A stretch of DNA of 64,000 bases from an uncultured bacterium. Its GTDB lineage: Bacteria > Patescibacteriota > Minisyncoccia > Phycocordibacterales > Phycocordibacteraceae. Within the stretch, counting starts at the first letter, position 1. Each line of letters begins with the position of its first letter. The notes below the pieces were generated by a model. It made no database searches, was not told where the DNA came from, and worked only from the letters and a program-made list of their open reading frames with translations. Position numbers and translations under genes: made by a program. Below, one piece after another: positions 2,024 to 49,876 of the stretch. The stretch is from the NCBI GenBank assembly GCA_963851445.1, contig CAWKPH010000002.1:102183-166182 (forward strand), given 5' to 3'.

Positions 2024-2119
2024 CCTAATAACAGGTGTATACCCAGGGACACCTTTTACATAGAGCGCACACTGGTATACTGAACGGCATACCCATTTCT
2101 GCCTATATAACTAAATTGC

Positions 2120-3403
2120 ATGCCTCGAACAATTGATGACATACTTCCGCCTTCTCGGCGCCGTGCGGCGAATGATAGTAAGGCGACCGATATCGATACC
2201 CCAGACACTGATACTTCAGACGATAACCGCGACAGATTCTCGGGCCACCGCACTCCACCCCGTGTGCGAATCAACACTGGACGTAGTTTTCCCTATGGTA
2301 CCGCAATAATTGCACTCCTTGTGATCGCAATATCAGCTGGAGCGCTTTATGCATTTGCTGGTGCAAAAGTGGAAATTCAACCCAAATCGCAATCTGTTCA
2401 AGTGAGCGGAAGCTTTAGCGCTACACAAGGAACGGGTAGCTTGCCTTTTACTTTGATAACCGTAAATAAAACTGCAAGTGCTTTTGTTCCTGCCGAGAGT
2501 ACAGAAACTGTAAACGATTCTGCACAGGGGACTATAACAGTGTCGAACACTCTTTCCACACCAGAAACGTTCGTCGCTAACACACGCTTTGAGACACCTG
2601 CGGGTCTTGTGTTTCGAGTTCATGCCCCAATAACCATACCTGCAGCTACCGCAAGTGGACCGGGAACAGTAAGCGCAATGGTCTACGCCGATCAACCAGG
2701 TCAGGAATACAATGTGGGACCTACCACGTTCACTGTTCCCGGCCTTATGAACTATGCAAGCGAATATAGTGCTATAACCGCGAGGTCGACGAATGCAATG
2801 ATAGGGGGATTTACGGGAACTCGAGCTTCGGTTGGTCAGTCAACCGACAGCAGCCAACAGTCAACTCTTCAATCGACACTTGCAACTGAACTACAGTCTG
2901 ATATCACATCTCAAATTCCTTCAGGGGACGTTTTGGTTCCTGGTAGTACTTTTACTTCTTATACTTCAGTACCTGATACTGCAACGACTACAACTACCGT
3001 CGAGGTGAGTGAGCAAGGAACGCTCACTGCGGTGGTGTTCCCGAACTCCGCGCTTGCTCAAGCGATTGCATATAAACAAGTTGGTACCTATGAGGGTGAG
3101 CCAGTTACTACTAACAGTGTCAATAGCCTCAATCTTTCGTCTGCAAGTACGACAGTCCCAACCTCAGGAACAGAAACCTTCAACTTTAACCTTTCGGGCT
3201 CGGCAACGATTGTCTGGACAGTTGATCCTTCCAAAATCGCAGGTGCTATCGCAGGAAAAACGCGCGATTCAGCACAATCAATTCTTGCGGGATTTCCTGA
3301 AGTTGACCAAGCGACCCTTTATTTACGACCTTTTTGGGCAAACACGTTTCCTGCAGACCCCTCTCGTATTCAAGTAGTTATTGAAAAGCCTGCTAATCAA
3401 TAA
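2120..3403 (+). CDS. Hypothetical membrane-anchored Thr/Ser-rich protein
   Basis: 427-aa ORF with a single N-terminal TM helix (IIALLVIAISAGALYAF) followed by a Thr/Ser-rich extracellular region. Confidence 0.4.
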   Translation: MPRTIDDILPPSRRRAANDSKATDIDTPDTDTSDDNRDRFSGHRTPPRVRINTGRSFPYGTAIIALLVIAISAGALYAFAGAKVEIQPKSQSVQVSGSFSATQGTGSLPFTLITVNKTASAFVPAESTETVNDSAQGTITVSNTLSTPETFVANTRFETPAGLVFRVHAPITIPAATASGPGTVSAMVYADQPGQEYNVGPTTFTVPGLMNYASEYSAITARSTNAMIGGFTGTRASVGQSTDSSQQSTLQSTLATELQSDITSQIPSGDVLVPGSTFTSYTSVPDTATTTTTVEVSEQGTLTAVVFPNSALAQAIAYKQVGTYEGEPVTTNSVNSLNLSSASTTVPTSGTETFNFNLSGSATIVWTVDPSKIAGAIAGKTRDSAQSILAGFPEVDQATLYLRPFWANTFPADPSRIQVVIEKPANQ

Positions 3404-13486: not shown

Positions 13487-15280
13487 ATGAGTCCTACTGA
13501 TGTAAAAGAGATATATACTCCTACTGAGAAGCGCGAGGCAATTCTGAGGCAATTGAAGCCCTATATGGGGACGTTTATCGTCCTTTCGTTACTAGGAATT
13601 GTCTCCGCAATAGCCAACGGGGCGACCCCCTATATTGTTGGTAAGTTCTTTGACGAACTCATCACGCCCACTTCAATCACGGTTCCCTGGTTTGGGGCTC
13701 AACCTTTTTGGGTAGTACTTCTTTCAGTGTGGCTTGCTGTTCAAATAGTCGCCAATGGTATTAGTTGGTTTATCGATCGCAAAACTCGTTTTCTTACGAC
13801 CGAACTTGAGGCCGGTATTCAGGCTAGGGCCTTCACACAACTTTTAACGCTTCCCATTTCTTTTCATAAACATGCGCGCACTGGTGAAATAACGAATACC
13901 GTGAGTAGAGCAGCGTGGATGCTTTCAAACATGGTTACGAATGTGCTCTCGCTTGCACCACAATTCCTGACGATCATTGTTGGCATCACGATATCGTTTG
14001 CAATTCGACCTTCGCTTGCGTATGTGCTCCTTGCAGGAGTTGCAGTATATCTCGTGGTGTTAGTGCGCGTACTTCCCTCTACCGCAAAATATCAGGAGGA
14101 GGGGTTTACGATTTGGAATCGTGCATATGGCGATGCAGCTGATGCGTATGCTAATTTTCAAACCGTAAAGCAAGCGGGCGCAGAAGAGTTTGAGGGCAAG
14201 CGCATTATGACTGGGTTTTATGACAACGCCGTGCCTATTTGGTATCGCATGGAGCGTGCATGGAGCAACTTAAACTTTTCACAGCGCATTATAGTAATGC
14301 TTACACAAGGGACGATATTTCTATTTTCCGTATTTCTTATACAAGAGAAAGAACTCACTATCGGCGGACTTATCGCCTTTAACGCGTATGCAGGCATGAT
14401 CATTGGCCCCTTTGTTTCTCTCGGCACACAGTGGCAGACCATACAGAATGGTCTTACCGCGGTAGCTCGTGCCGAGCGCATATTTGGTACCGATCCTGAA
14501 ATATATGATCCACCGAACGCTGTAGCACTTGGTGATTTGAAAGGAAATATAAACTTTAAGGACGTGCACTTTACGTATGAAGCGGGGCAGCCCGAAGTTT
14601 TGAAGGGTATTAATTTTTCAGTTAAGGCTGGGGAAGTTGTTGCGTTTGTTGGAGAAACAGGTGCGGGCAAATCTACAACTGCAGAGCTTATTTCTGGTTA
14701 TTACTTTCCGACACATGGGGAAGTAACAATAGACGGTCACAATATTCGAACAATTAGTCTTCGAGAGCTCAGAAGTTATATTGCCATTGTGCCTCAGGAA
14801 ATTGTTCTTTTTAATGGCACCCTCATGGATAACATTCGCTATGGCCGCCCTGATGCAACAGACGAAGAAGTTAAGAATGCCGTACAAAAAGCGCATGCCG
14901 AAACGTTTATTGATAAATTCCCACTGAAATATGAGCAAATTGTGGGTGAACGGGGTGTAAAGCTTTCGGTTGGGCAAAAACAACGCGTTGCAATTGCACG
15001 AGCAATTCTGCGAAACCCGCGGATACTCATTCTCGACGAACCTACGTCTGCACTTGATGCTGAGACCGAGAGTTACATTAGCAAATCACTTGAAGAACTT
15101 ATGTTTGGTCGCACGACATTTATCATTGCACACCGACTTTCGACCGTGCGACAGGCCGACAAAATCATCGTCCTAAAGAATGGTGTTGTGGCAGAAGAAG
15201 GAACACATGATCATTTAATTGAAATTTCGAACGGCCTTTATCGCCATTTATATGACCTAAATGTTGGGTTAAAGAAGTAA
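13487..15280 (+). CDS. ABC transporter, fused permease/ATPase (type I exporter, MsbA-like)
   Basis: Six-TM N-terminal domain, Walker A GETGAGKST, signature LSVGQKQRVAIARA, Walker B ILILDEPTSALD. Confidence 0.85.
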   Translation: MSPTDVKEIYTPTEKREAILRQLKPYMGTFIVLSLLGIVSAIANGATPYIVGKFFDELITPTSITVPWFGAQPFWVVLLSVWLAVQIVANGISWFIDRKTRFLTTELEAGIQARAFTQLLTLPISFHKHARTGEITNTVSRAAWMLSNMVTNVLSLAPQFLTIIVGITISFAIRPSLAYVLLAGVAVYLVVLVRVLPSTAKYQEEGFTIWNRAYGDAADAYANFQTVKQAGAEEFEGKRIMTGFYDNAVPIWYRMERAWSNLNFSQRIIVMLTQGTIFLFSVFLIQEKELTIGGLIAFNAYAGMIIGPFVSLGTQWQTIQNGLTAVARAERIFGTDPEIYDPPNAVALGDLKGNINFKDVHFTYEAGQPEVLKGINFSVKAGEVVAFVGETGAGKSTTAELISGYYFPTHGEVTIDGHNIRTISLRELRSYIAIVPQEIVLFNGTLMDNIRYGRPDATDEEVKNAVQKAHAETFIDKFPLKYEQIVGERGVKLSVGQKQRVAIARAILRNPRILILDEPTSALDAETESYISKSLEELMFGRTTFIIAHRLSTVRQADKIIVLKNGVVAEEGTHDHLIEISNGLYRHLYDLNVGLKK

Positions 15281-15337
15281 GAGGTTATTCTGTATAACCT
15301 CATGGATAATATACGGTAGGCGTGTTATATTCATCGC

Positions 15338-16399
15338 GTGACCAATCTTGAGAAGTTACCAGAGTTTGACGGCCACGAAATGGTACTCCGGATCCAGGAT
15401 AAGGCCACAGGTCTTCAGGGCTTTATTGCTGTGCATAATACTAATCTCGGACCTGCAGTGGGGGGTACCAGATACTGGTACTACAAAAATGAGGAAGAAG
15501 CGCTTCGCGATGCACTTCGTCTTTCGAGGGCAATGACCTATAAGTGCGCACTTGCCAAAGTTCCATACGGGGGAGGAAAGGCTGTACTTATGGCTCCCAA
15601 AGATCCTAAAGCGAGGGCGAAATTAAAGAGTGACTCATATCTCGTTGCCTACGCAAACCGTCTTTCGCTTCTTGATGGTCATTTTTTCACAGGTGAAGAT
15701 GTCGGGATCACCGAGCACGATATAGAGGTACTTGCGCGCAACTCAACAAGCATTATCGGGCGTCCGTCTATAGGAGGGCTTCCATCGCCACTTGCTGCGC
15801 AAAGTGTTTTTGAATCAATGCGTGCTGCGCTTCGTGTCGCCTATGACACTGAGTCATTTGAAGGCCGAAAGGTGGCTGTAAAAGGCCTTGGCAACGTAGG
15901 ATTCGATCTTGTAAAACTTCTTACAAAAGCAGGGGCCGCCGTTGTAGGAGCTGACGTAAACGAAGATCGCGTACGACTTGCTCAAAAACAATTTCCTGAT
16001 TTGAAAATAGTTTCACCTGCAGTCATTCATAAGCAAGTAGTGGATATTTATTCTCCCTGTGCCATGGGCAGTGACTTGACTTCACTGTGTATACAACAAC
16101 TTGCATGCAAAATTGTGTGTGGGTCGGCAAATAATCAACTCGCAACGCCTGCCGATAGTAATCGGCTCCTTAGACGCGGCATCGTGTATGTGCCTGATTA
16201 CGTTGCAAATGCAGGGGGGTTGATAACGGTAGTCGACGAACTTCATGCAGGAGGCTATGATCGGCGCAGAGTGCAAAGAAATGTTGGACAAGTAAAAGAA
16301 ACTGTCGCACATATTCTTATTGAGGCTAGGGAGAAAGGACTACCCACTGGGCAGGTCGCTGACTCTCTTGCGGAAAAACGTTTTCGAATCAAACGATAA
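15338..16399 (+). CDS. Leucine/phenylalanine-type amino-acid dehydrogenase (Glu/Leu/Phe/Val DH family)
   Basis: Catalytic Lys motif PYGGGKAV and Rossmann fold GLGNVG. Overall collinear with LeuDH. Starts with GTG. Confidence 0.8.
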   Translation: MTNLEKLPEFDGHEMVLRIQDKATGLQGFIAVHNTNLGPAVGGTRYWYYKNEEEALRDALRLSRAMTYKCALAKVPYGGGKAVLMAPKDPKARAKLKSDSYLVAYANRLSLLDGHFFTGEDVGITEHDIEVLARNSTSIIGRPSIGGLPSPLAAQSVFESMRAALRVAYDTESFEGRKVAVKGLGNVGFDLVKLLTKAGAAVVGADVNEDRVRLAQKQFPDLKIVSPAVIHKQVVDIYSPCAMGSDLTSLCIQQLACKIVCGSANNQLATPADSNRLLRRGIVYVPDYVANAGGLITVVDELHAGGYDRRRVQRNVGQVKETVAHILIEAREKGLPTGQVADSLAEKRFRIKR

Positions 16400-16401
16400 G
16401 T

Positions 16402-17919
16402 ATGAATTCAAATAAACTACTTTCCTCTTCCGCTGCAGCTGAAAGGGCGATACGTGTAAGCCAAAAGGCTGCGTCGTCTACTTACATGCGTAGACGAGAA
16501 AAAAATGCGCTCACACTGTTTCGAGACACAGTAAAAAGAGTTCCAGCCTACAGGACATTTCTTAAAGAGCATGATATTGATCCGGTTTCTATAAAAACAT
16601 GGACTGATTTCCAGAAAATTCCCTCTACGAACAAAGATACCTATTTGCGCAAATATCCGCTGGCCGAGCTCTGCTGGGACGGCACACTTGCGCGCTCGGG
16701 AGTATTTTCAGCAACGTCTGGCTCAACAGGAAAGCCTTTTTATTTTCAGAGATCTCAAAATCTTGAAGAGGAGTATTCAGAGATTGTGGAAATGTTTCTT
16801 TCGCAAGGTGCACATCCGCCAAGCACCAAATGTCCCACACTTGTAATTATCGGTTTTGGAATGGGAGTATGGATAGGAGGAATGCTGACCTATCGTGCAT
16901 ACGAAATCGCAAGCAGCCGTGGGTACCCCATGTCAATCATACCCGCAGGTGTAAATAAGGACGAAATACTTGGCGCACTTCGCGAACTTGCTCCTCAATT
17001 CAAGCAAACAATACTTATTGGGTATCCTCCATTTGTGAAAGATATACTGGATGAAGCAGAGCTTTCCGGCATCGATCTTAAGTCACTTAACTTGCGGCTC
17101 CAGTTTGCAGCAGAGTCATTTACGGAGCAATTTCGGGATTATCTTGGAAAGAAAGCCGAGATTTCAAACGTAGTACGCGATACCCTCAATATATATGGAA
17201 CTGCAGATATAGGCGCCATGGCTTTTGAAACCCCAACAGCTATTCTCATTCGTCGGCTAGCTATGAAAAATGAGAAGATATTTACTAGGCTATTTGGGGA
17301 CGCCAAAAAGACTCCTACACTCACGCAGTACAACCCAGCATTTATGACCTTCGAGGCAACTGATGAAGGCGAGATACTCTTAACAGGAAATAGTGCTATA
17401 CCTCTCATTCGATATGCAATAGGCGATCATGGAGGTGTACACTCTTTTGATCACATCAATACGATTTTGAAAGAAGAAAGCATCGACCTTGAGAAGGAAG
17501 CAAAAAAGCATGAGGTGCAGCTTTGTCAGCTACCATTCGTGTATGTCTATGCGCGTGTCGATCTCTCAACGAAATTATATGGCGCAATCGTCTATCCTGA
17601 ACATGCGCGTGAGGCACTCGAAGACGACGAGCTTTTAAAAAGTATCACTGGCAAATTCACGATGCAAACGCTCACCGATAAGGATCACAATCAGTTTCTT
17701 GAAATAAATCTTGAACTTCGTCCCGATGGTGTCCAATCAGCGAAACTTGAACGGCTTATTCAGGATAAAATACTGCAAAACCTCCTTCAAAAGAATAGCG
17801 AGTACCACAATAATTACAAATCGATGGGTGAGCGAGTACTGCCGCGTATTGTTCTCTGGCCCCATGCGGATGCAACCTATTTCAAACCAGGTATAAAGCA
17901 GCAGTGGGTTAAGAAGTAG
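16402..17919 (+). CDS. PaaK-like adenylate-forming enzyme (phenylacetate-CoA ligase / F390 synthetase family)
   Basis: AMP-binding P-loop SGSTGKPFYF. Length and motif spacing fit the PaaK/CapK/LuxE group. Confidence 0.6.
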   Translation: MNSNKLLSSSAAAERAIRVSQKAASSTYMRRREKNALTLFRDTVKRVPAYRTFLKEHDIDPVSIKTWTDFQKIPSTNKDTYLRKYPLAELCWDGTLARSGVFSATSGSTGKPFYFQRSQNLEEEYSEIVEMFLSQGAHPPSTKCPTLVIIGFGMGVWIGGMLTYRAYEIASSRGYPMSIIPAGVNKDEILGALRELAPQFKQTILIGYPPFVKDILDEAELSGIDLKSLNLRLQFAAESFTEQFRDYLGKKAEISNVVRDTLNIYGTADIGAMAFETPTAILIRRLAMKNEKIFTRLFGDAKKTPTLTQYNPAFMTFEATDEGEILLTGNSAIPLIRYAIGDHGGVHSFDHINTILKEESIDLEKEAKKHEVQLCQLPFVYVYARVDLSTKLYGAIVYPEHAREALEDDELLKSITGKFTMQTLTDKDHNQFLEINLELRPDGVQSAKLERLIQDKILQNLLQKNSEYHNNYKSMGERVLPRIVLWPHADATYFKPGIKQQWVKK

Positions 17920-17941
17920 TTCCATAGGATATACTGTACCC

Positions 17942-19126
17942 ATGACTGATATTAAGGAATATTTAGAGCATGCAGCCCTGAAGAAACAGCCTATCAAGCC
18001 AACTTTTTTTGATCTTTCAAAAGAATCTGATCAGAAGCAAGTACGAGAATTATTTGAGAAAGGCGAGATACAACACGTTACCAATGATTTTGAGGAGGAA
18101 TTACGAGAGCTGTACGCTATAAAAAATCCAACCAAAGTATATACCCCCGAGTTTACGACCCTCTTTGATGCGCACAGGAAAGAGCTTCAAACTAGTCTTC
18201 CCGAATGGCAACAAGGCCTTTGGGTATATTACCCTTGGCGATCTCTCCTAGCTCATATTCTCCCTGAGGAGGATTTTTACCTTGTACGTACGGCAAGAAA
18301 TAAAAATCTTATTACCGCTGGGGAACAGAGTAAATTCTACAACGCAACGGTAGGTATAGGAGGACTGAGCGTTGGCTCAAGCATTGCCTATGCACTTACC
18401 CTTCAGGGAGGTCCTAAGCGCATTAGACTTGCTGATATGGACCATCTTGCACTCTCAAACACAAATCGTGTCCTTGCTGGAGTTGATAGTCTTGGCGTGT
18501 TGAAAGTCGATATGGCTGCCAGACGAATTTACGAAGTGAACCCCTATGCTGAAGTTGAAATATTTCCTGAGGGGCTTACACCCGAGAATATAGGGACCTT
18601 TGCAGATGGGTTGGATATCCTCATTGATGAACTCGACAATATAGCAGTCAAATATCTCATACGCGTTGAGGCGAAAAAACGCTCAATTCCAGTGGTTATG
18701 GGTGCAGACAATGGCGATAATGCCGTTATTGATGTAGAGCGCTATGACCTTGATCCCGAAACAAAATTCTTTCACGGACGCTTGGGTGACGTCACTTACG
18801 AAGAACTGAGTAATCTCGACAAGTTTGGCATCGGCAAAACAATCACTAAGCATATAGGACCTGAAAATATTACTATTCGTATGCAGGAATCCTTGCTCGA
18901 AATGGGTAAGACGATTGTTTCATGGCCACAGCTTGGTGGCGCAGCGCTCGTCAATGGCGCAGCTGTGGCATACTGTGTTCGAAGGATTCTGAACGGTCAG
19001 GATGTGGTATCTAATCGAGAGCTTGTTTCGCTCGATGAAAAACTTGACCCCACCTACAACACTCCAGAAGAAGTTACCAAGCGTACAACGGCATCCGCTG
19101 CTTTTGCGAAAATGTTTGGTTTATAA
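17942..19126 (+). CDS. ThiF/MoeB/HesA (E1-like) family protein with ~130-aa N-terminal extension
   Basis: Rossmann ATVGIGGLSVGS and E1 adenylation motif DMDHLALSNTNR. No obvious catalytic Cys. The N-terminal extra domain is reminiscent of peptide-clamp domains of MccB/PaaA-type enzymes. Confidence 0.65.
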   Translation: MTDIKEYLEHAALKKQPIKPTFFDLSKESDQKQVRELFEKGEIQHVTNDFEEELRELYAIKNPTKVYTPEFTTLFDAHRKELQTSLPEWQQGLWVYYPWRSLLAHILPEEDFYLVRTARNKNLITAGEQSKFYNATVGIGGLSVGSSIAYALTLQGGPKRIRLADMDHLALSNTNRVLAGVDSLGVLKVDMAARRIYEVNPYAEVEIFPEGLTPENIGTFADGLDILIDELDNIAVKYLIRVEAKKRSIPVVMGADNGDNAVIDVERYDLDPETKFFHGRLGDVTYEELSNLDKFGIGKTITKHIGPENITIRMQESLLEMGKTIVSWPQLGGAALVNGAAVAYCVRRILNGQDVVSNRELVSLDEKLDPTYNTPEEVTKRTTASAAFAKMFGL

Positions 19127-19134
19127 TCAATACT

Positions 19135-20193
19135 ATGGATCCAGATATTCGCACCATCTTGGAGGCTGCCATTCAAGCCCCCTCAGGAGAGAATGTGCAA
19201 CCATGGCGATTCCGTGTCAACGGTAAAACTATCGAGTTACATCATGCTTCGGTTGATAGCGAGATCTATGATTGGGAGAGCCGAGTCTCTCTCATTGCGC
19301 ATGGAGCCGCTCTTGAAAACATGGTTCTTAGTGCCTCTGCTCTTGGTTACGAAACGAATGTAATTCTATTCCCAGATTCCGCTCGACCTACCTACATAGC
19401 ATCTCTGGCGCTTGGCGAGAAAAAACAGCCTGTGGAGAATGTTTTAGTAGAGGCAATTCCAAAGCGCGTCACAAACCGTAACTCTTATGAAGTTAAGCCT
19501 CTTGAGGAGACTGCAAGCAATAAACTCCAAGAAATCTCAGACGGGTCAAAAACGATTCGTTATCTGCGCGTTACCGAACGTGAAAAAATCCAGAAACTCG
19601 CAAGGGTTGGCAGCACGAATGAAGAAGTGATGTTGCAAAATAGAGTATTGCACGATTTCTTCTTTGATCATGTTACATGGACAAAAGAGGAAGACGAGCA
19701 AAAGAGAGTCGGCTTTTATATTAAAGCACTTGGCCTTCCACCTCCTGTGCAGGTCATGTTTAAATTATTTAAAAATTGGTCTGTGATGAACGTACTGAAA
19801 AAAGCAGGGTTTCCGGCTCAAGTGGGCAAGCAGAACGCTGCTACGTACAATTCCACTTCTGAAATGGGGATACTGAGTATTAGAGAGAATGCTCCCAAAA
19901 ATTATGTCGAGGCAGGAAGATTACTCCAAAGAATATGGCTCCAGACGACTGTAAACAACGTGGCCATGCAGCCAATCGCGGGAACCTTGTACATGGGTTT
20001 TTATCTTGCGGCACACCCGGGCTCAACAGAGGTTTTTTCGATACATGAGCGTTCTCTTGTAGAGAATGCGGTTAAGATGGCACGGGAAGTTGTTGGGGAT
20101 GGAAGTATTCCAGTGTTCATGTTTCGCCTTGGGTATGGAAAGCCACCTGAGGCACGATCAACGCGATTTCCGCTAGAGTATTTCCTCCTATGA
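19135..20193 (+). CDS. Two-lobed nitroreductase-family protein (SagB/McbC-like or Acg-like)
   Basis: N-terminal lobe QPWRFRV, C-terminal lobe ending RSTRFP. About 350 aa with duplicated nitroreductase halves. Confidence 0.6.
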   Translation: MDPDIRTILEAAIQAPSGENVQPWRFRVNGKTIELHHASVDSEIYDWESRVSLIAHGAALENMVLSASALGYETNVILFPDSARPTYIASLALGEKKQPVENVLVEAIPKRVTNRNSYEVKPLEETASNKLQEISDGSKTIRYLRVTEREKIQKLARVGSTNEEVMLQNRVLHDFFFDHVTWTKEEDEQKRVGFYIKALGLPPPVQVMFKLFKNWSVMNVLKKAGFPAQVGKQNAATYNSTSEMGILSIRENAPKNYVEAGRLLQRIWLQTTVNNVAMQPIAGTLYMGFYLAAHPGSTEVFSIHERSLVENAVKMAREVVGDGSIPVFMFRLGYGKPPEARSTRFPLEYFLL

Positions 20194-21788
20194 TAGTAGC
20201 TTTCAATACTGATCTCATTGTTCTTGGGACCGCCATTTCTGCTATTGCAATATTAGGATTTGTTGTTCTTTTCCAAGATCCAAAGAGTGATACGACCCGT
20301 GCGTTCTTTGTTTTTTCGCTTGCTGCCATCATATGGGGTGTAATAAATTATGCGAGTTATCACGCACCTACCGTATTTTTGACTCTCTGGCTATGTCGAC
20401 TAGTCATATTCGCTGCCGTATGGTTTTGTTTTTTCATTTTTCATCTTGCCTATGTATTTCCACAAAGAAAAACTGCTCTTTCAAAACGTTATAAATATAT
20501 CCTCATCCCTGTAGTCACCCTGTCTTCACTTCTTACACTCACTCCACTAGTCTTTTCAAACGTAACATTTTCATCAACTCAAGGAAGCGTTCCTGTAATT
20601 GTGCCTGGAATCGGCATTCCTATTTTTGGTCTAACAGTGCTCTGTCTTGTGTGCGCAGCGATATACGAATTCCTGAACAAGCAACGAAAAGGACAGACTG
20701 ATCAGAACTACCAGCTGGGATTTATTATGGGGGGCACGGCAATCACTTTTGCGCTTCTTATTCTTTGCAATCTCATTCTACCTATCGCCTTTGGCCAGTA
20801 TGTCTTCATACCGTTTGGCGCAGTCTTTATATTCCCATTCATTGCCTGCACGGCGTATGCCATTATTCGCTTTCACCTCTTTAGTGTGCGCGTCATCGCT
20901 ACAGAAATATTTGCATTTACACTTACTATTGCGACTCTGCTTCAGGTAGTCTTTTCTAGCACTGCGCCGGAGCTTATCTTTCGTATAGCGATATTCATAC
21001 TAGTACTTTCATTCGTTATACTTCTTATTCGAAGCGTTCTTAATGAAGTTCGACAGCGCGAGCACATACAGCTGCTTGCAGATCAGCTTGAGAAAGCTAA
21101 TAAGCAGCAAGTTGTTCTCATACATTTCATTACGCATCAGATCAAGGGTTTCGTTACAAAATCACGCAATCTCTTCTCGATGCTGCTTGAAGGCGATTAC
21201 GGCACTCTTCCAGACACCATGCGCCCTATGGTGGAGGAAGGGCTACGTTCTGATACGCAAGGCGTTGAGACAATTCAAGAGATACTGAATGCCTCCAATG
21301 TAAAAAGTGGCGCAGTCACGTATAACATGGCTTTGTTCGATTTTGGTCAACTTGTCGATGAGATCACAAACGGACTTCGTCCGAATGCTGAGACAAAGAA
21401 ACTTACGTTTACGGTAGATACTTCTGGAGGGCCGTATCAGGTAAATGGTGATCGCCTTGAACTTCAAAATGCGATTAAAAATATAGTTGATAACGCTATC
21501 AAATACACGCCATCAGGAAGTGTCTCTATCACGCTTAAAAAGGACAACGATAAACTTCGCTTTGAGGAAACTGATACGGGAGTAGGCATTACGGCTGAGG
21601 ATATGGCACATCTCTTCACTGAGGGTGGCCACGGCAAGGAATCTATAAAAGTTAATGTTGAGAGCACGGGCTTTGGGCTCTATATCGTAAAAAACATTAT
21701 TAACGCTCACAACGGCAAGGTTTGGGCAGAATCAGAAGGAGCTGGAAAGGGTTCGAAGTTTATTATAGAACTTCCACTTTCCCAGTAA
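20190..21788 (+). CDS. Sensor histidine kinase with multi-pass membrane N-terminal domain
   Basis: About 8 TM helices, H-box HFITHQIKG, HATPase_c (G-boxes DTGVGI, GFGLYIV). The start overlaps the upstream stop (ATGA). Confidence 0.75.
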   Translation: MIVAFNTDLIVLGTAISAIAILGFVVLFQDPKSDTTRAFFVFSLAAIIWGVINYASYHAPTVFLTLWLCRLVIFAAVWFCFFIFHLAYVFPQRKTALSKRYKYILIPVVTLSSLLTLTPLVFSNVTFSSTQGSVPVIVPGIGIPIFGLTVLCLVCAAIYEFLNKQRKGQTDQNYQLGFIMGGTAITFALLILCNLILPIAFGQYVFIPFGAVFIFPFIACTAYAIIRFHLFSVRVIATEIFAFTLTIATLLQVVFSSTAPELIFRIAIFILVLSFVILLIRSVLNEVRQREHIQLLADQLEKANKQQVVLIHFITHQIKGFVTKSRNLFSMLLEGDYGTLPDTMRPMVEEGLRSDTQGVETIQEILNASNVKSGAVTYNMALFDFGQLVDEITNGLRPNAETKKLTFTVDTSGGPYQVNGDRLELQNAIKNIVDNAIKYTPSGSVSITLKKDNDKLRFEETDTGVGITAEDMAHLFTEGGHGKESIKVNVESTGFGLYIVKNIINAHNGKVWAESEGAGKGSKFIIELPLSQ

Positions 21789-21879: not shown

Positions 21880-23130
21880 ATGGACGTCGTAAAGGACCTA
21901 CAAGCGCGAGGGCTTGTTGAGCATAGCTCAGCTGAACTTGAGAAAATCCTCTCAAAAAGGCGTGTTGTATACTTTGGCGTGGATCCCTCGGCAGACTCTC
22001 TACAAATAGGGAATTTGGCAGCGCTACTCATACTTAAGCGTCTTGCGGTCGCCGGTCATAAAATCATTCTTCTCGTGGGTGGCGGCACAGGCATGATAGG
22101 AGACCCTCGAGAGGCTGGTGAGCGCCCACTTGTTGATAAAAAAGTGGTTGAGCGAAATAAAAAAATCATAAGAAACCAAATGCAGGACATCATTGGTACG
22201 CGTGTACAACTCGTAGATAACGCTGACTGGCTTCTTAAACTTAAATTTGTCGACTTTCTTCGCGATATTGGAAAGCATTTTACAGTGAACGAACTTATAA
22301 AACGCGACACAATTAAGCGTCGTCTTGAAACACCAGATGAAAGTATTTCGTACACTGAATTTGCGTACTCCCTACTGCAGGGCTATGACTTTATGGTTTT
22401 GAATGAAAAATATGGATGTGATTTACAAATAGGTGGATCAGATCAGTGGACGAACATTCTTTCAGGTGTCGAACTTATTCGCAGAAAACTTGGTAGGGAA
22501 GCATTTGCTCTTACCTGCCCGCTCGTCACGGATGCTAGCGGAAAAAAATTTGGTAAATCGGAAGGAAATGCGGTATGGCTTGATCCAAATAAAACCTCTC
22601 CTTTTAATTTCTTTCAATTCTGGTTGAATCAGCCTGACAAGGGAATTGCGAAATATTTCAAATTCTATACGTTTATGCAAACTACTGAAATTGATCTCCT
22701 CATTGAGATGCATAATCGCAATCCAGAAAAACGTGAGGCTCAGAAGATGCTCGCGCTATCCGTAACCGAAATTGTGCATGGAAAAGAGGCAGCCATGAAT
22801 GCAGCGGCAGTATCCGAGGTGCTCTTTGGCAAAAAACGTCTCTCAGAACTTACTAAAGATGAACAGGCTGCCTTACTGCGTGAAGCGCCCGTGTTTGGCA
22901 TTGAACGAAGCAAGATAGAAGCAGAGCATCCGATCATCGACGTCTTAGTCGACAGTGGCCTTGTGAATTCTAAATCTGATGCTCGCCGGCTTATCGAAGG
23001 AAAGGGAATTTCAATTAATGATGACCTGATTGAATCCCTTGATTCAAAGCTTACACTTCTCAATTTTATGCCCACTCTAGCGCTCCTCAAGCGTGGTAAA
23101 CAAGTTGTTGTGCTCTCGATTGAAAAATAA
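21880..23130 (+). CDS. tyrS: Tyrosyl-tRNA synthetase
   Basis: HIGH-type motif (LQIGNL), KFGKS (KMSKS variant), C-terminal S4-like domain. Confidence 0.9.
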   Translation: MDVVKDLQARGLVEHSSAELEKILSKRRVVYFGVDPSADSLQIGNLAALLILKRLAVAGHKIILLVGGGTGMIGDPREAGERPLVDKKVVERNKKIIRNQMQDIIGTRVQLVDNADWLLKLKFVDFLRDIGKHFTVNELIKRDTIKRRLETPDESISYTEFAYSLLQGYDFMVLNEKYGCDLQIGGSDQWTNILSGVELIRRKLGREAFALTCPLVTDASGKKFGKSEGNAVWLDPNKTSPFNFFQFWLNQPDKGIAKYFKFYTFMQTTEIDLLIEMHNRNPEKREAQKMLALSVTEIVHGKEAAMNAAAVSEVLFGKKRLSELTKDEQAALLREAPVFGIERSKIEAEHPIIDVLVDSGLVNSKSDARRLIEGKGISINDDLIESLDSKLTLLNFMPTLALLKRGKQVVVLSIEK

Positions 23131-23158
23131 GCTTCAAGCCGCTATAGTGCGTAGTATT

Positions 23159-23244
23159 GCGTCGGTGGTAGAGTGGTCAATTACAACAGGCTGTAAACCT
23201 GTCGGCTTCGGCCTACGGAGGTTCGAATCCTTCCCGGCGCACCA
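23159..23244 (+). tRNA. tRNA-Tyr (anticodon GTA), CCA encoded
   Basis: Cloverleaf with 7-bp acceptor (one G-U pair), anticodon loop CTGTAAA, long variable arm CGGCTTCGGCCTACG, T-loop GGTTCGAATCC, 3' ACCA. Lies immediately downstream of tyrS. Confidence 0.85.
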
Positions 23245-23275
23245 TATCTGTTAGTGAAACGCAGCATGGTATCGT

Positions 23276-24250
23276 ATGCAAATGAACCAAAGACCAATCT
23301 TGCTATCAGGAATCAAGCCAACCGGCGATCTCCATATTGGCAATTATTTTGGCGCTATGCGCCAGCAAGTTGAATTATTCAAATCAGAGAAATATCACTG
23401 CTATATCATGGTGGCTGACTACCACGCTCTTACCACTGTCCAGAACGCTGCTGAAATGTTGCAGCTTACACTTGATCTAGCAACTGCCTATATGGCCATA
23501 GGACTTGATCCGGAAGGATTGGTTCTCTTTAAACAGTCTGATGTTCCTTCTCACACTGAACTTACCTGGATATTCGATACCATTACAACAATGCCTTATC
23601 TAATGCGTGCCCATGCATTCAAAGATGCCGAGGCTAAGAATAAAGAGATAAGTGTTGGTGCTTTCAATTATCCAATGCTTATGGCAGCTGACATTCTCCT
23701 CTATGATACTGCAATTGTGCCAGTTGGGCAGGATCAGAAACAGCACATTGAATACGCACGCGATACTGCTGAGAAATTCAATCGTATTTTTGCAAAAGAT
23801 TCCGAAGGCATTTTCGCAATGCCAGAGCCATATATCATGCCTGAAGTCGCTATAGTTGCGGGCACTGATGGCAGAAAAATGAGTAAAAGCTACGGAAATG
23901 TAATTCCGCTCTTTGCCTCACGAGACGAAATTACAAAGGCGGTCATGAGCATTGTGACCGATTCATCAGGCGAAAGACCTGAGAATGTATACAAGATTCA
24001 TAATCTTCTTAAAACTGATGCAGAGCTTAAGCCGCTCTATAAGGAGCACAAAGGAAAATATAAAGAATTGAAACAGGCACTTATTGATGACTTAGACGAG
24101 TTCATTGGTCCGTTTCGAGAAAAATACGAGGAATTGAAGAACGAACCTGAGTTGGTGCAAGAGGTTCTTAGAAAGGGCGCTGCAACCGCCAGAGAGAAAG
24201 CGGAAGCAAAAATGATTAAGGTGCGAAAGGCAATTGGGGTCACTGAATAG
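23276..24250 (+). CDS. trpS: Tryptophanyl-tRNA synthetase
   Basis: Class I HIGH motif (GDLHIGNY) and KMSKS. Confidence 0.9.
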   Translation: MQMNQRPILLSGIKPTGDLHIGNYFGAMRQQVELFKSEKYHCYIMVADYHALTTVQNAAEMLQLTLDLATAYMAIGLDPEGLVLFKQSDVPSHTELTWIFDTITTMPYLMRAHAFKDAEAKNKEISVGAFNYPMLMAADILLYDTAIVPVGQDQKQHIEYARDTAEKFNRIFAKDSEGIFAMPEPYIMPEVAIVAGTDGRKMSKSYGNVIPLFASRDEITKAVMSIVTDSSGERPENVYKIHNLLKTDAELKPLYKEHKGKYKELKQALIDDLDEFIGPFREKYEELKNEPELVQEVLRKGAATAREKAEAKMIKVRKAIGVTE

Positions 24251-24308
24251 AACATATATTTCAGCCGCAGCTTCCTGACTCAATTTACCGCGCACTTTAT
24301 GGAATGGC

Positions 24309-25727
24309 ATGCTATTTTATAGCCATATGGAAGACCGAATCTTGATAGACGAGCTTGAGCAACATATAGGTGAAACGGTTGTGATCGCTGGCTGGGTAGA
24401 TGTTCGTCGAGATCAAGGCAAGCTTATTTTTTTTGATTTTCGCGATCGAACTGGCACCGCTCAAGGCGTTGTTCTACCTGGGGAAGAAGCGCTTATGGAA
24501 ATTGCCAAAGATATTCGTAACGAATACGTTGTACAAGTTTCAGGAATCGTTAATAAGCGTCCCGAAAAAAATGCACAGCCTGATAAACTAAACGGCGCTA
24601 TTGAACTGGAGGTTAGGGACATTAAGGTCCTTGCCGCTTCAGAACCACTTCCTTTTGATCTTACTGATACAAGTGACATTGACGAAAATGTACGTCTCAC
24701 CTATCGATACATCGATTTGCGTTCTCCACGCATGCAGAAGAATATTCGTTTGAGAAGTGAGTTCGTTAAACGTTGCCGTGAATTTCTTTTTAAAGAAGGT
24801 TTTACAGAAATAGAAACACCCTTGCTTACTGAATCAACACCCGAAGGTTCTCGTGATTTCGTTGTTCCTTCTCGGCTTAATCCCGGGAAATTCTACGCGC
24901 TACCACAATCTCCTCAGCAGTATAAGCAACTTCTTATGACCGCTGGATTTGAACGCTATTTCCAAATCGCTCGCGCTGTGCGTGATGAAGATCTTCGTGC
25001 TGACCGTGGATTTGAACATTCTCAAGTCGATATCGAGATGTCATTTGTAAATCGTGAGGCGGTTATGAATCTTGTTGAAAAAATGATTATAACAACGGTC
25101 GAAGGAATGGGTTTCAGTGTCAAAGAAAAGCCGTTTCCGCGCATTTCATACAAAGACTCTATGGAAAAGTATGGTGCTGACAAGTTTGATCTGCGAACTA
25201 AGGAAGAGAAAGAGAGTGGAATTCTAGCTTATGCATGGGTTATTGATTTCCCATTCTTTGAAAAAACCGATGAGGGCAAATGGACCTTTACTCATAACCC
25301 ATTTTCGATGCCCATTCCAGAACATCTTGAGTGGCTTATGAAGGGCGAACATTTGGAGGATATTCTCACTACACAATATGATCTAGTTTGCAATGGGTTC
25401 GAATCAGCCGGGGGAAGCATCCGCGCGCATCGCCCCGAAATCCTTGAAGCTACTTACCGCGCGATGGGGTATTCGTCTGAGGAAACAGAAGCAAGTATCG
25501 GGCACATGCTTAAGGCCTTCAAATATGGCACACCGCCTCATGGGGGTATTGCTTTGGGCATTGAGCGCAACCTAATGAACCTCACTGGAGAAAGCTATCT
25601 ACGAGAAGTACAGGCCTTTCCAATGACACGAGGCGGGCAAACTGCCGTTATGAAAGGACCAAAACCGCTTGAAGAAAAGCAGTTGAAAGAACTTGGTATA
25701 CGAATTGATTCACCAAAAGAAAAATGA
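24309..25727 (+). CDS. aspS: Aspartyl-tRNA synthetase (compact, lacks bacterial GAD insertion)
   Basis: Anticodon-binding OB fold and class II motifs (FRDEDLRADR, GGSIRAHRPE...GTPPHGGIALGIER). 472 aa. Confidence 0.9.
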   Translation: MLFYSHMEDRILIDELEQHIGETVVIAGWVDVRRDQGKLIFFDFRDRTGTAQGVVLPGEEALMEIAKDIRNEYVVQVSGIVNKRPEKNAQPDKLNGAIELEVRDIKVLAASEPLPFDLTDTSDIDENVRLTYRYIDLRSPRMQKNIRLRSEFVKRCREFLFKEGFTEIETPLLTESTPEGSRDFVVPSRLNPGKFYALPQSPQQYKQLLMTAGFERYFQIARAVRDEDLRADRGFEHSQVDIEMSFVNREAVMNLVEKMIITTVEGMGFSVKEKPFPRISYKDSMEKYGADKFDLRTKEEKESGILAYAWVIDFPFFEKTDEGKWTFTHNPFSMPIPEHLEWLMKGEHLEDILTTQYDLVCNGFESAGGSIRAHRPEILEATYRAMGYSSEETEASIGHMLKAFKYGTPPHGGIALGIERNLMNLTGESYLREVQAFPMTRGGQTAVMKGPKPLEEKQLKELGIRIDSPKEK

Positions 25728-38501: not shown

Positions 38502-38514
38502 TACTATTTTTGTA

Positions 38515-41439: not shown

Positions 41440-41613
41440 TTTCGCTCTCCTCTAGGGGTTGGTGGACTAATTTGTGCGATCTTGGCTTATCCTACAGAAG
41501 CTCACAAAGATAACAAGCGATTAACGTTTATCCATGGTAGGTTATTCCTAGACGAGCACCTTTGCGGGTGCTTTGTTGTTTGTCAATCTGCAGCCAATAG
41601 AGGAGATGCTGCC

Positions 41614-49716: not shown

Positions 49717-49841
49717 GTCCTTTCGTTCTACTTGTTTGAAGTGTTCTTTTGGGCGGTTTGCAATATTTGCAGACCGCCCTTTTTCTTTTCTATTAATTCT
49801 TTGAAAGCTTACTAATACTTCCAGCTACCACTAAAATCTTT

Positions 49842-49876
49842 TGTGAGGTTAGAATCTGGGTGGTATAAGAATTGAC
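49842..49876 (+). repeat. Array repeat R6
   Basis: TGTGAGGTTAGAATCTGGGTGGTATAAGAATTGAC. The 3' end overlaps a -35 box. Confidence 0.5.

Follow-up and report, generated by a model that had tools for sequence, protein, structure and literature searches.

We propose that five adjoining genes in the tiny genome of a Patescibacteria (CPR) member constitute a variant, of a Patescibacteria type, of the oxazolone (azlactone) pathway known from other bacteria, and that this pathway is linked to a two-component sensor; we judge this reading moderately probable. The genes occupy positions 15338-21788 of the 64,000-nucleotide stretch of DNA analyzed here, called the window (Table 1). If the kinase at the end of the operon senses the product, the cassette would both synthesize a signal and sense it. 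We found no description of such a ligase-based Patescibacteria oxazolone cassette in the literature.

Table 1. The five-gene operon and features immediately upstream of it in the window
Feature	Position	Strand	Length	Basis or remark
ABC exporter, fused permease/ATPase	13487..15280	+		ABC_membrane + ABC_tran; 57 bp upstream of operon
Hairpin	15281-15301			Between exporter and dehydrogenase; frequency not above shuffled sequence
Promoter-like site	15303-15331			Between exporter and dehydrogenase; frequency not above shuffled sequence
NAD(P)-dependent amino-acid dehydrogenase, Glu/Leu/Phe/Val (ELFV) family, Leu/Phe/Trp type	15338..16399	+	353 aa, GTG start	Pfam, NCBIfam
PaaK-fold adenylate-forming ligase	16402..17919	+	505 aa	Profile search, AlphaFold model, Foldseek, ANL motifs
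ThiF-like ATP-dependent cyclase (putative), similar to the N-terminal half of TrzS (Rv1355c) and to TyzB	17942..19126	+	394 aa	NF005901, BLASTP
Two-lobed Acg-like FMN-dependent oxidase (putative), similar to the TrzS C-terminal half and to TyzC	19135..20193	+	352 aa	NF005901, BLASTP, PDB
Membrane sensor histidine kinase, polytopic 7TM-type N-terminal sensor + HATPase_c	20190..21788	+	532 aa	Pfam, hydropathy

An ORF check of the window returned all five co-directional genes. The first four are spaced by 2, 22, and 8 bp, and the nitroreductase and kinase ORFs share an ATGA at 20190-20193, read directly from the sequence, so the preliminary description of five tightly coupled genes with an overlapping last pair is confirmed. 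The arrangement is more than chance because it recurs, with order and similarly tiny gaps kept, in about 80 other genomes, all Patescibacteria for the order PaaK-like ligase, ThiF, nitroreductase, 7TM kinase. Specifically, ThiF is accompanied by the ligase in 64 of 67 loci, by the nitroreductase in 55 of 65, and by the kinase in 51 of the 60 that have at least 3 kb of downstream sequence; the median gaps are 18 (ligase–ThiF), 5, and 3 bp. A ThiF::nitroreductase fusion occurs inside an otherwise identical cassette, and in groundwater contigs a full operon with overlapping genes runs from receiver and lyase through ligase and ThiF to nitroreductase and kinase. Together, the recurring gene order and the fusions mark the cassette as a functional unit.

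The chemistry of the pathway is suggested by the ThiF and nitroreductase proteins. The ThiF protein matches NF005901, the Rv1355c family model, at 332 bits (residues 14-380; model positions 7-351 of 722), and all other ThiF-type models score at most 75 bits, the runner-up being an NCBIfam model at 74.5 bits. The nitroreductase matches the remainder of NF005901 (186 bits, model positions 377-715). Taken alone, each protein lies below the whole-protein cutoff of 476 bits; together they cover the model wholly, which points to a specialized pathway of the oxazolone rather than the azoline/RiPP family. Rv1355c is TrzS, an experimentally characterized tryptazolone synthase whose substrates are N-acyl amino acids rather than peptides (PMC12856293), and TrzS, TyzB/TyzC, and OxzB have been demonstrated biochemically to cyclize and desaturate N-acyl amino acids into oxazolones (PMC12856293, PMC10404671, bioRxiv 10.1101/2020.06.11.147165). 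By BLASTP, a 708-aa Mycolicibacterium Rv1355c-family protein aligns with ThiF (39% identity, E = 1e-67), and the nitroreductase aligns with the C-half of the Mycolicibacterium family protein (E = 1e-15).

The ThiF domain spans residues 129-255; therefore, the N-terminal extension of ~130 aa remarked on earlier is real, but it is common to the whole Rv1355c/TrzS-type clade and not peculiar to this protein. ATP-site residues are invariant in the ThiF alignment (A1), namely G138xGGxxG145, D165, D167, N173-R176, K188, and D229-E230-x-D232-N233, and by motif position we equate the invariant ATP-site Asp with TrzS D217. One clade holds ThiF::nitroreductase forms of both kinds, split and fused, intermixed; it includes a fused relative (P0243) with 51% identity to ThiF. 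The nitroreductase is two-lobed, as first described, and Acg-like: it matches PRK14851 at 188 bits and the Acg family NF047509 at 156 bits, and among PDB entries its sequence matches Acg (2ymv) best. PRK14851, a fused ThiF–nitroreductase model that may represent the proteobacterial OxzB type, matches ThiF at only 60 bits. The nitroreductase motifs APSGxNxQPW, R111-x-T-N-R115, G193, G261, W268, R331, and R344 are kept in CPR, fused, and actinobacterial forms. The protein is divergent: it shares about 23% identity with the C-halves of actinobacterial TrzS and ~32% with members of its clade. The position provisionally mapped to TrzS R540 (motif DRIRF) is non-Arg in the CPR type (NEEVML), and thus substrate or chemistry may differ.

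Two other roles for this pair have to be weighed. ThiF-like and nitroreductase-superfamily proteins cooperate in azoline-forming RiPP systems, and the adjacency of the two genes here recalls such partners. The preliminary description accordingly pointed to SagB/SagC-type RiPP or bacteriocin maturation, in which a SagC-like E1 and a SagB-like dehydrogenase would act on a ribosomal peptide and the ligase and amino-acid dehydrogenase would serve as tailoring enzymes. That proposal fails. Neither TIGR03605 (SagB-type) nor TIGR03693 (Ocin_ThiF-like) is matched at E <= 0.01, and the Rv1355c family is matched instead. The same description was right that YcaO and a precursor peptide are missing: neither YcaO nor any other TOMM protein turned up in a scan of 40 window ORFs, the intergenic gaps (2-22 bp) are too short for a precursor gene, and clustering of ORFs of at least 90 aa from 80 related loci gave no conserved small ORF family. 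RiPP/TOMM-like maturation is thus largely refuted, and we regard it as exceedingly improbable. Likewise very improbable is a role for ThiF in activating a sulfur-carrier or ubiquitin-like protein, in the manner of MoeB/ThiF/E1 enzymes, or in dehydrating tRNA t6A as TcdA does, with the nitroreductase an unrelated redox enzyme. By sequence, the best solved-structure matches of ThiF are TcdA (E = 1e-13), then Uba4, MoeB, and ThiF; PADLOC gives weak E1-E2 matches (<= 33 bits); and tyrS, tRNA-Tyr, and trpS lie just downstream of the operon. However, TcdA, MoeB, and ThiF models score only 43-63 bits, against cutoffs of 159-449, and ThiF has a single Cys (C345), hence neither a CxxC zinc site nor a catalytic Cys. 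The operon contains no ThiS/MoaD-like gene, and relatives fuse ThiF to the nitroreductase or, in the same kind of cassette, to an aromatic ammonia-lyase (P0288). The aaRS neighbors represent housekeeping synteny (dnaK-dnaJ ... trpS-aspS-like) that is missing from many loci. Rather than plain MoeB/ThiF cofactor biosynthesis beside a generic NfsB-type enzyme, the operon thus presents a co-conserved set of genes, as befits the uncharacterized small-molecule activation/oxidation pathway suggested at the outset. As a whole, the initial interpretation is partly supported.

One feature that sets this cassette apart from known oxazolone pathways is the ligase. It has no Pfam match and matches the PaaK model TIGR02155 weakly (59 bits, PaaK N-terminal; cutoff 646 bits). 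A profile search of the PDB retrieved PaaK 2y4o (E = 1e-13). The AlphaFold (AF2) model (pLDDT 88) resembles PaaK1 2y27 in Foldseek (E = 1e-21; TM-score 0.80 normalized to PaaK1, 0.68 to the query), and further Foldseek matches include NatL2 and ClxA (E about 1e-15 to 1e-16, 15-17% identity). The ANL motifs TSGSTGKP (105-112), YGTAD (265-269), GD (341-342), and a C-terminal K499 are invariant in the ligase alignment (A3). The modeled fold and intact adenylation motifs agree with the earlier designation as a PaaK-like adenylating enzyme. Members of this ligase subfamily were seen here only in Patescibacteria and metagenome sequences. Identity among ligases is ~52% inside a partner-enzyme class and 31-33% between lyase-linked and 2-oxo-acid-linked classes, whereas ThiF identity stays at 60-64% across all classes; by these comparisons, ligase subfamilies track the type of upstream enzyme and ThiF does not. 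NatL2 (PMC7204872) and ClxA (PMC12519233) are PaaK-fold enzymes that form ester or amide bonds without CoA. We propose that the ligase does the work that an acyl-CoA N-acyltransferase performs in known oxazolone pathways, linking an acid to an amino acid through the latter's amino group; the amine-acceptor step is one that we purely infer. Outside the CPR, relatives have extra terminal domains fused to ThiF::nitroreductase, with motifs that, judged by eye, resemble N-acyl-amino-acid synthases.

The ligase could alternatively be an ordinary aryl- or 2-oxoacyl-CoA ligase, with ThiF and the flavoenzyme still of the oxazolone type. Its CoA thioester could then be consumed by an unlinked acyltransferase, or ligase and dehydrogenase could serve a separate amino-acid fermentation that shares the operon. 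The structures nearest the ligase are indeed true CoA ligases (PaaK1/2 and BT_0428, by PDB profile search and Foldseek). Tyrosine ammonia-lyase and CoA ligase form a classic pair, e.g., flexirubin FlxA/FlxY; the ligase shows a weak FlxY match (33.6 bits), and the FlxA-like tyrosine ammonia-lyases of related loci score 577-620 bits. Nonetheless, we consider this reading unlikely. The operon encodes no N-acyl-amino-acid-synthase acyltransferase, and no acyltransferase family is conserved across 80 loci; no other gene is linked to ThiF as tightly as the ligase (immediately 5' in 57 of 67 loci, median gap 18 bp); both the PaaK and FlxY equivalog scores fall far under cutoff; and, to our knowledge, Patescibacteria generally lack CoA-dependent lipid metabolism. 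We give a somewhat lower probability to the idea that the same building blocks yield another heterocycle or activated product, for example, an acyl-adenylate-derived amide that ThiF cyclizes otherwise or the flavoenzyme reduces, with the kinase a general envelope or nutrient sensor. The divergence of the nitroreductase and its non-Arg residue at the provisional R540 position fit such a scheme, as do variable accessory genes in related loci (a 307-aa methyltransferase-like family, SDR, and alanine-racemase-like) and, in other lineages, ThiF + GNAT pairs that lack a nitroreductase. Against it stand the strong conservation and specifically TrzS-like character of ThiF and the ThiF::nitroreductase fusions in the same clade.

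The dehydrogenase matches ELFV_dehydrog_N (PF02812, 76 bits) and ELFV_dehydrog (PF00208, 62 bits), in agreement with its previous assignment to the Leu/Phe type, and contains the catalytic-region motif KVPYGGGK. Its top NCBIfam match is the tryptophan dehydrogenase ScyB (294 bits, below the 600-bit cutoff). An ELFV dehydrogenase occurs in 20 of ~80 related loci; in others, its position is occupied by a tyrosine-ammonia-lyase-like gene or an aminotransferase. Directly 5' of the ligase, 31 of 61 loci have a dehydrogenase, an FlxA-like tyrosine ammonia-lyase, or a hisC-like or class-IV aminotransferase, while no deaminating enzyme was found within the fetched sequence of 25. We propose that the dehydrogenase is an accessory, exchangeable module that supplies a 2-oxo acid, i.e., a deaminated amino acid.

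The oxazolone pathway could proceed as follows. From its context, the ELFV dehydrogenase would strip the alpha-amino group from an amino acid, probably aromatic or branched, to give a 2-oxo acid, the equivalent step in sister cassettes falling to the tyrosine-ammonia-lyase-like enzyme or the aminotransferase. The PaaK-fold ligase would adenylate the deaminated acid (probably aromatic) and use it to acylate a free amino acid on the alpha nitrogen, yielding an N-acyl amino acid and dispensing with acyl-CoA and an N-acyl-amino-acid-synthase-type acyltransferase. By homology to TrzS, TyzB, and OxzB, ThiF would then adenylate the carboxylate of the N-acyl amino acid, and attack by the amide oxygen would close the 5(4H)-oxazolone ring. 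Finally, the Acg-like FMN enzyme, as a homologue of TyzC and of the TrzS oxidase domain, would desaturate the C-alpha/C-beta bond, producing a conjugated 4-ylidene (4-alkylidene or 4-arylidene) oxazolone. TrzS and TyzC use O2, which counts against the model; many Patescibacteria inhabit anoxic settings.

Several parts of this scheme have characterized counterparts. TrzA/TrzS (Rv1356c/Rv1355c) form the N-acyl tryptazolone pathway of Mycobacterium tuberculosis, M. smegmatis, and Rhodococcus, in which TrzS is a fused ThiF-cyclase/flavin-oxidase (PMC12856293). The window proteins likewise pair a ThiF-like cyclase with an Acg-like flavin oxidase, span the TrzS-family model including the N-terminal extension, and conserve the ATP-site Asp and FMN core motifs. 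Unlike TrzS, they are separate genes; the host is a Patescibacteria member, the residue provisionally equivalent to R540 differs, a conserved 7TM histidine kinase closes the cassette, and a PaaK-fold ligase and amino-acid dehydrogenase stand in place of the TrzA-type acyl-CoA:amino-acid N-acyltransferase. Split genes, for a ThiF-homologous cyclase and an Acg-like nitroreductase-superfamily oxidase (monomeric TyzC), are also found in the N-acyl tyrazolone pathway TyzA/TyzB/TyzC of M. tuberculosis (Rv2336-Rv2338c), but there TyzA acylates with lauroyl-CoA (PMC10404671), and TyzB, 318 aa and annotated MoeW, is unlike the window ThiF, which is nearer the TrzS type. The oxazolone synthetase OxzA/OxzB of Pseudoalteromonas rubra, which turns N-acyl aromatic amino acids into oxazolones, also has a ThiF + nitroreductase pair, and OxzB was the first ThiF-family enzyme demonstrated on a small molecule (de Rond, Asay & Moore; bioRxiv 10.1101/2020.06.11.147165). 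In contrast to the window proteins, OxzB is a fused di-domain protein that works with the N-acyltransferase OxzA and is reported from proteobacteria only. For the ligase, the precedents are the non-thioesterifying PaaK-fold enzymes of benzoxazole pathways, NatL2/BomJ and ClxA (PMC7204872, PMC12519233), which transfer an acyl adenylate to a second small-molecule nucleophile without CoA, the activity proposed here. Their substrates are aminohydroxybenzoates, and CoA-free coupling by the distantly related CPR ligase is putative.

The sensor kinase matches HisKA_7TM (34 bits, cutoff 28.6) and HATPase_c (92 bits) in Pfam, and shows 8-9 hydrophobic segments and the H-box HFITHQIKG (H316). Its membership in the operon is borne out by its place as the conserved last gene, which in 31 loci follows straight after the nitroreductase (median gap 3 bp). 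The preliminary description called it an orphan, and indeed no response regulator adjoins the operon in the window, but relatives often pair the kinase with a CheY-like, single-domain receiver beside the cassette (17 loci and L087). Conserved synteny suggests that the kinase possibly senses the product or a related ligand, or regulates the pathway.

The 57-bp-distant ABC exporter is a possible product exporter, although its membership in the operon is doubtful, with an orthologue close to the cassette in just 4 related loci. CqsA/CqsS and LuxM/LuxN are pairs of autoinducer synthases and polytopic histidine-kinase receptors, and the window operon similarly sets biosynthetic genes directly beside a multi-pass membrane histidine kinase. 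Unlike those systems, its enzymes have no sequence relationship to CqsA or LuxM, ligand sensing by its kinase is putative, and the cassette regulator, where present, is receiver-only. Signaling genes also adjoin the Trz pathway, where they are c-di-GMP turnover genes in mycobacteria and, beside the Rhodococcus plasmid copy, a GGDEF gene. The authors of the Trz study point out that oxazolones resemble acyl-homoserine-lactone signals (PMC12856293).

The ThiF protein and the nitroreductase of the five-gene operon match the two halves of one fused protein family. Specifically, the ThiF protein matches the NCBIfam model NF005901, "Rv1355c family protein," at 332 bits over model positions 7–351 of 722, and the nitroreductase matches the same model at 186 bits over positions 377–715. 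Together, the two proteins tile the entire fused model, including the part that precedes the ThiF fold. A plasmid-encoded Rv1355c-family member from Mycolicibacterium shares 39% identity with the window ThiF protein (E = 1e-67), and its C-terminal half matches the window nitroreductase (E = 1e-15). The nitroreductase also scores 156 bits against the NCBIfam Acg family model. The tight packing of five co-directional genes noted in the preliminary description is borne out by the ORF listing and by direct reading of the sequence: the first four ORFs are separated by 2, 22, and 8 bp, and the nitroreductase and kinase ORFs share an ATGA overlap.

Features of the operon and its downstream flank (window coordinates)
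Feature	Coordinates	Strand	Basis or remark
ELFV amino-acid dehydrogenase ORF, 353 aa, GTG start	15338-16399	+	ORF listing, Pfam/NCBIfam
PaaK-like ligase ORF, 505 aa	16402-17919	+	ORF listing; no Pfam domain
ThiF ORF, 394 aa	17942-19126	+	ORF listing; ThiF fold begins at about residue 129 (Pfam/NCBIfam)
Nitroreductase ORF, 352 aa, Acg-like, two-lobed	19135-20193	+	ORF listing, Pfam/NCBIfam
Kinase ORF, 532 aa, HisKA_7TM + HATPase_c	20190-21788	+	ORF listing, Pfam/NCBIfam
tyrS, tRNA-Tyr(GTA) (23159-23244), trpS, class II (Asp/Asn/Lys-type) aaRS	21880-25727		Downstream of operon

A HMMER search with the ThiF protein returned 962 clusters (50% identity) at E <= 1e-30. Split (~350–410 aa) and fused (~690–790 aa) forms are intermixed when ranked, and both align through the N-terminal extension, which makes the extension a clade character. 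Thus, the extension reported earlier is real, but it is not peculiar to the window gene. The ATP site (GxGGxxG, D165, D167, NTNR, K188, and DExDN, containing D232) is invariant across 18 sequences, and by motif position D232 is taken as the counterpart of D217 of TrzS(Msmeg). The nearest solved-structure sequence is TcdA, an ATP-dependent cyclodehydratase, a match that fits a common cyclodehydration-type chemistry. For the nitroreductase, the nearest solved-structure sequence is Acg, which has likewise been reported as a structural neighbor of the TrzS oxidase domain. Aligned together, the candidate phyla radiation (CPR), fused, and actinobacterial forms have in common the FMN-core motifs APSGxNxQPW and RxTNR and, farther on, invariant Gly, Trp, and Arg residues. 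Mutagenesis has shown that residues R540 and Q651 of the TrzS(Msmeg) oxidase matter. By approximate offset mapping through the Mycolicibacterium homolog, the presumed R540 site (DRIRF) reads NEEVML in the CPR type, with no Arg, and at the presumed Q651 site stands Q279 (MQP), either retained or changed to His.

Characterized members of this family make oxazolones. TrzS (Rv1355c), a ThiF cyclase fused to a flavin oxidase, carries out ATP-dependent cyclization and then O2-dependent desaturation of N-acyl tryptophan to yield N-acyl tryptazolones (Kleetz et al., PMC12856293). The split pair TyzB (ThiF) and TyzC (oxidase) makes tyrazolones (PMC10404671), and OxzB of Pseudoalteromonas is the founding oxazolone synthetase (bioRxiv 10.1101/2020.06.11.147165). 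On the strength of sequence homology, we consider it likely that the window ThiF protein and flavoenzyme perform oxazolone-type chemistry. A related but different heterocycle may be made instead: the divergence of the flavoenzyme speaks for this alternative, and the invariant ThiF ATP site and the shared FMN core sit with oxazolone formation. The N-terminal extension is also present in ThiF proteins (36% identical to the window protein) encoded at L083 5920-7718, on Streptomyces plasmid NZ_CP109451.1, and at the related locus L090 1317-3478. Both genes are directly followed by a GNAT/Acetyltransf_1 gene, and a nitroreductase is absent; this arrangement may be another variant, pairing an acyltransferase and a cyclase without a desaturase.

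The preliminary description had read the ThiF–nitroreductase pair as a SagB/SagC-type system for maturation of RiPPs or bacteriocins. That reading is rejected. Neither TIGR03605 (SagB-type) nor TIGR03693 (Ocin_ThiF-like) gave an NCBIfam match at E <= 0.01, the two proteins matching the Rv1355c model instead. Its remark that YcaO and a precursor are lacking stands: there is no YcaO among the scanned window ORFs, and the operon gaps leave no space for a precursor gene. Nor does the ThiF protein look like an activator of a sulfur carrier or ubiquitin-like protein. MoeB and ThiF models score 43–63 bits against NCBIfam cutoffs of 159–449, and MoeB, ThiF, TcdA, and SAMP-E1 models all remain at <= 75 bits, far under their cutoffs. 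The protein has a single cysteine and thus neither the zinc site nor the catalytic Cys of sulfur-transfer E1 enzymes, and the operon holds no small carrier gene of the ThiS/MoaD/Ubl type. Identity with TcdA as tRNA ct6A dehydratase is not supported by score (51 bits for the equivalog NF011696; cutoff 304), and an E1/E2 or CBASS-like antiphage role is set aside because PADLOC gave generic E1-fold matches only (<= 33 bits). The preliminary description had also allowed for a plain MoeB/ThiF protein whose neighbors are not conserved with it; we find a protein outside those families whose neighbors are co-conserved.

More than 2000 database entries are related to ThiF. The top 120 are ~394 aa long without exception, with 63–76% identity, and those that bear names are Patescibacteria or Parcubacteria. 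Scanning one genome per species yielded 80 loci; tblastn confirmed 120. Taxa among the loci include Adler-, Kaiser-, Taylor-, Nomura-, Lipton-, and Uhrbacteria, Paceibacterota, and Saccharibacteria, and all informative titles are Patescibacteria. A CPR bacterium of the Paceibacteria/Parcubacteria type is thus the almost certain source of the window. Gene-neighborhood conservation, counted on the 80 loci by tblastn and de novo ORF clustering with loci having enough flank as denominators, is extensive. The PaaK-like ligase lies upstream of ThiF in 64 of 67 loci (immediately adjacent in 57; median gap 18 bp), and the nitroreductase lies downstream in 55 of 65 (immediately adjacent in 45; median gap 5 bp). 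The 7TM kinase is present in 51 of the 60 loci with at least 3 kb of downstream sequence, in 31 directly after the nitroreductase, with a median gap of 3 bp.

What lies directly upstream of the ligase differs among loci, and in 31 of 61 it is a gene for an amino-acid-deaminating enzyme. Specifically, this enzyme is an ELFV dehydrogenase of the window type (13 loci), an aromatic amino acid lyase (10 loci; Pfam, 516 bits), a hisC-like class I/II aminotransferase (6 loci), or a class IV aminotransferase (2 loci, assigned by eye with no profile search). The best NCBIfam model for the lyases is the flexirubin tyrosine ammonia-lyase FlxA (577–620 bits). For the window dehydrogenase, the top named model is the tryptophan dehydrogenase ScyB (294 bits, under cutoff). 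A chorismate-mutase-like ORF, recognized by eye, lies upstream of the ligase in one locus.

Gene fusions join members of the cassette. Protein P0243 is a ThiF::nitroreductase fusion (51% identity) on contig L086, which carries, in this order, lyase, ligase, ThiF::nitroreductase, methyltransferase, and kinase genes. Protein P0288 is a ThiF::aromatic-lyase fusion on contig L085, ordered ThiF::lyase, ligase, nitroreductase, and 7TM kinase. In this 924-aa protein (L085 153-2927), a complete aromatic amino acid ammonia-lyase bearing an ASG MIO motif is joined to a TrzS-type ThiF cyclase, a pairing for which we came across no earlier description. On groundwater contigs where ThiF identity is only 40%, the receiver, lyase, ligase, ThiF, nitroreductase, and kinase genes form one operon and overlap throughout. 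In 11 loci (e.g., L003 5363-6286), a ~307-aa family with a DLGAGG motif and no Pfam or NCBIfam match lies between the nitroreductase and the kinase; the same slot of L086 (5378-6136) holds a recognizable SAM methyltransferase. The ~307-aa family is probably a tailoring methyltransferase.

The match of the ligase to the PaaK model TIGR02155 is weak and N-terminal (59 bits; cutoff 646), and a profile of the CPR ligase family matches PaaK structures over the N-domain (E = 1e-13). An AlphaFold model built with 36 homologs (pLDDT 88, pTM 0.83) matches PaaK1 (2y27) in Foldseek with E = 1e-21 and a TM-score of 0.80 normalized to PaaK1 and 0.68 normalized to the query. The ANL adenylation motifs and the C-terminal lysine are invariant in the ligase alignment (A3). 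Fold and motifs fit PaaK; the score far under cutoff and the absence of paa catabolic genes from the window and related loci do not fit the specific identity of phenylacetate-CoA ligase. NatL2 and ClxA are further matches of the model; both have the PaaK fold and, with no need for CoA, join an acyl adenylate straight to another small molecule (PMC7204872, PMC12519233).

Ligase classes follow the upstream partner enzyme. Ligases of one class share ~52% identity; those linked to a dehydrogenase share ~47% with those linked to an aminotransferase, and both groups share only 31–33% with the lyase-linked ligases. ThiF identity is 60–64% in every partner-class comparison. That the ligase tracks the partner class and ThiF does not is as expected if the acid substrate of the ligase is the product of the upstream enzyme. 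The dehydrogenase and aminotransferase would feed 2-oxo acids to the ligase, and the lyase would feed aryl-acrylates. No acyltransferase of the OxzA/TyzA/TrzA type occurs in the window ORFs scanned or among the gene clusters of the 80 loci; the position upstream of ThiF is held by the PaaK-fold ligase instead. In some non-CPR relatives, the ThiF::nitroreductase protein carries extra terminal domains whose motifs, by eye, resemble those of N-acyl-amino-acid synthases.

We propose the following pathway. Judging from gene context and covariation, the dehydrogenase (elsewhere a lyase or an aminotransferase) would supply a deaminated, probably aromatic, amino acid, which the PaaK-fold ligase would adenylate and use to acylate the amino group of another amino acid. 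This route would replace acyl-CoA chemistry in making the N-acyl amino acid. By homology, ThiF would then cyclize the N-acyl amino acid to a 5(4H)-oxazolone in an ATP-dependent step, and the flavoenzyme would desaturate it to a 4-ylidene oxazolone. Finally, as synteny suggests, the 7TM kinase, with the receiver-only regulator where present, may sense the product or control the pathway. We regard an oxazolone-type pathway with a sensor kinase as the best explanation overall, with confidence somewhat better than even. That the ligase acts as the acylase, a role to which context and covariation point, is a serious possibility to which we give slightly less than even weight. The rival arrangement, a conventional CoA ligase working with an unlinked acyltransferase, would suit the PaaK fold, and we judge it improbable; the 80 loci show no conserved acyltransferase family, and acyl-CoA chemistry is probably absent from these reduced genomes.

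The kinase has 8–9 hydrophobic segments by hydropathy, an H-box at His316, and its core. The preliminary description called it an orphan. That holds in the window, where no response regulator lies next to the operon, but not in some relatives: a ~136-aa receiver-only response regulator (Pfam Response_reg) adjoins the cassette in 17 loci and in the related locus L087. About 30 kb from the operon, a receiver-like 126-aa ORF (52081-52461, minus strand; VLVVDDE ... ITDNNM) aligns weakly with the cassette-linked regulators (tblastn, E = 9e-4) and has no NCBIfam match; it may be the regulator that the kinase otherwise lacks, or it may have nothing to do with the kinase. The notion that the kinase senses the product, which synteny brings to mind, is tentative, and we think it rather unlikely. 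The authors of the Trz study noted that oxazolones resemble signals of the acyl-homoserine-lactone type and that trzAS adjoins c-di-GMP genes (PMC12856293). On a Rhodococcus qingshengii plasmid (L082 2808-7010), an Rv1355c-family gene lies next to a GGDEF gene and a divergent gene for a 252-aa hypothetical protein, echoing the c-di-GMP neighborhood reported for M. tuberculosis trzAS.

What is new lies in the precursor logic, the phylum, and the conserved kinase; the enzyme pair itself is of a kind that is known and was discovered recently. Oxazolone biosynthesis (OxzAB, TyzACB, and TrzAS) was discovered only in 2020–2025, and its discoverers suspect a signaling role. Our literature searches for ThiF and nitroreductase in Patescibacteria or Parcubacteria, and for oxazolone, ThiF, and histidine kinase, found nothing; a single review (PMC8597712) came up for oxazolones in the CPR. 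The cassette would extend the oxazolone pathway to the CPR, in at least 120 species-level genomes, and proposes a CoA-independent route to the N-acyl amino acid precursor, with a ligase that may be a PaaK-family enzyme of a new, amide-forming kind. It also provides the first consistently co-encoded membrane sensor kinase for oxazolone-type genes, which makes the idea of oxazolones as signals directly testable. Patescibacteria are commonly seen as nearly devoid of specialized metabolism, and this would be among very few conserved small-molecule pathways in host-dependent organisms with ~1 Mb genomes, which bears on how such cells communicate with or manipulate partners. We speculate, with considerable doubt, that CPR cells make an oxazolone signal wholly from scavenged amino acids and sense it through the 7TM kinase and a CheY-like receiver. 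If so, the product would define a chemically new class of bacterial autoinducer or of symbiont–host signal, and natural oxazolones would gain their first physiological role.

Profile searches of the window place grpE-dnaK-dnaJ and an ABC exporter upstream of the operon. The upstream dnaK/dnaJ and the downstream trpS and class II aaRS recur around the cassette in a subset of related loci, which indicates vertical inheritance at a housekeeping locus and not a mobile island. Since Tyr and Trp are the precursors of known oxazolones, a functional link to tyrS, tRNA-Tyr, and trpS is appealing; we leave these genes out of the system, as they seem to reflect conserved synteny of housekeeping genes (dnaK-dnaJ ... 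trpS-aspS-like) seen in a subset of loci. The exporter is near the cassette in only 4 related loci, so its membership is doubtful. Promoter and terminator scans of the window gave counts no higher than the shuffled expectation. Directly after the exporter stop codon (15281-15331) lies a perfect 8-bp-stem hairpin, GAGGTTAT-TCTGT-ATAACCTC, and beyond it TGGATA-17-TATATT, which resembles a promoter, has an extended -10, and stops 7 bp short of the dehydrogenase GTG; together they may mark an operon boundary with a near-leaderless transcript.

Elsewhere, the window includes aaRSs and cell-wall genes, and up to ~40 kb nearly every gene lies on one strand; this gene content agrees with a CPR source. 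No Pfam match was obtained for ORFs (310–427 aa) at 860-3403, 46680-47612, 50447-51589, and 55563-56561. Downstream of a cell-wall block (MraY-like, FtsW, MurG), a FemAB-family peptidyltransferase is followed by a Peptidase_C39-like/TPR protein (37437-39645). After ~40 kb, composition and strand usage shift, with GC up to 0.59 at 48–50 kb. At 40321-42645 and 48000-50000, purine-synthesis fragments overlap on opposite strands (AIRS/AIRS_C on the minus strand; FGAR-AT N, linker, and GATase_5 on the plus strand), which may represent either decayed or unusual PurL/PurM genes or a join made in assembly.
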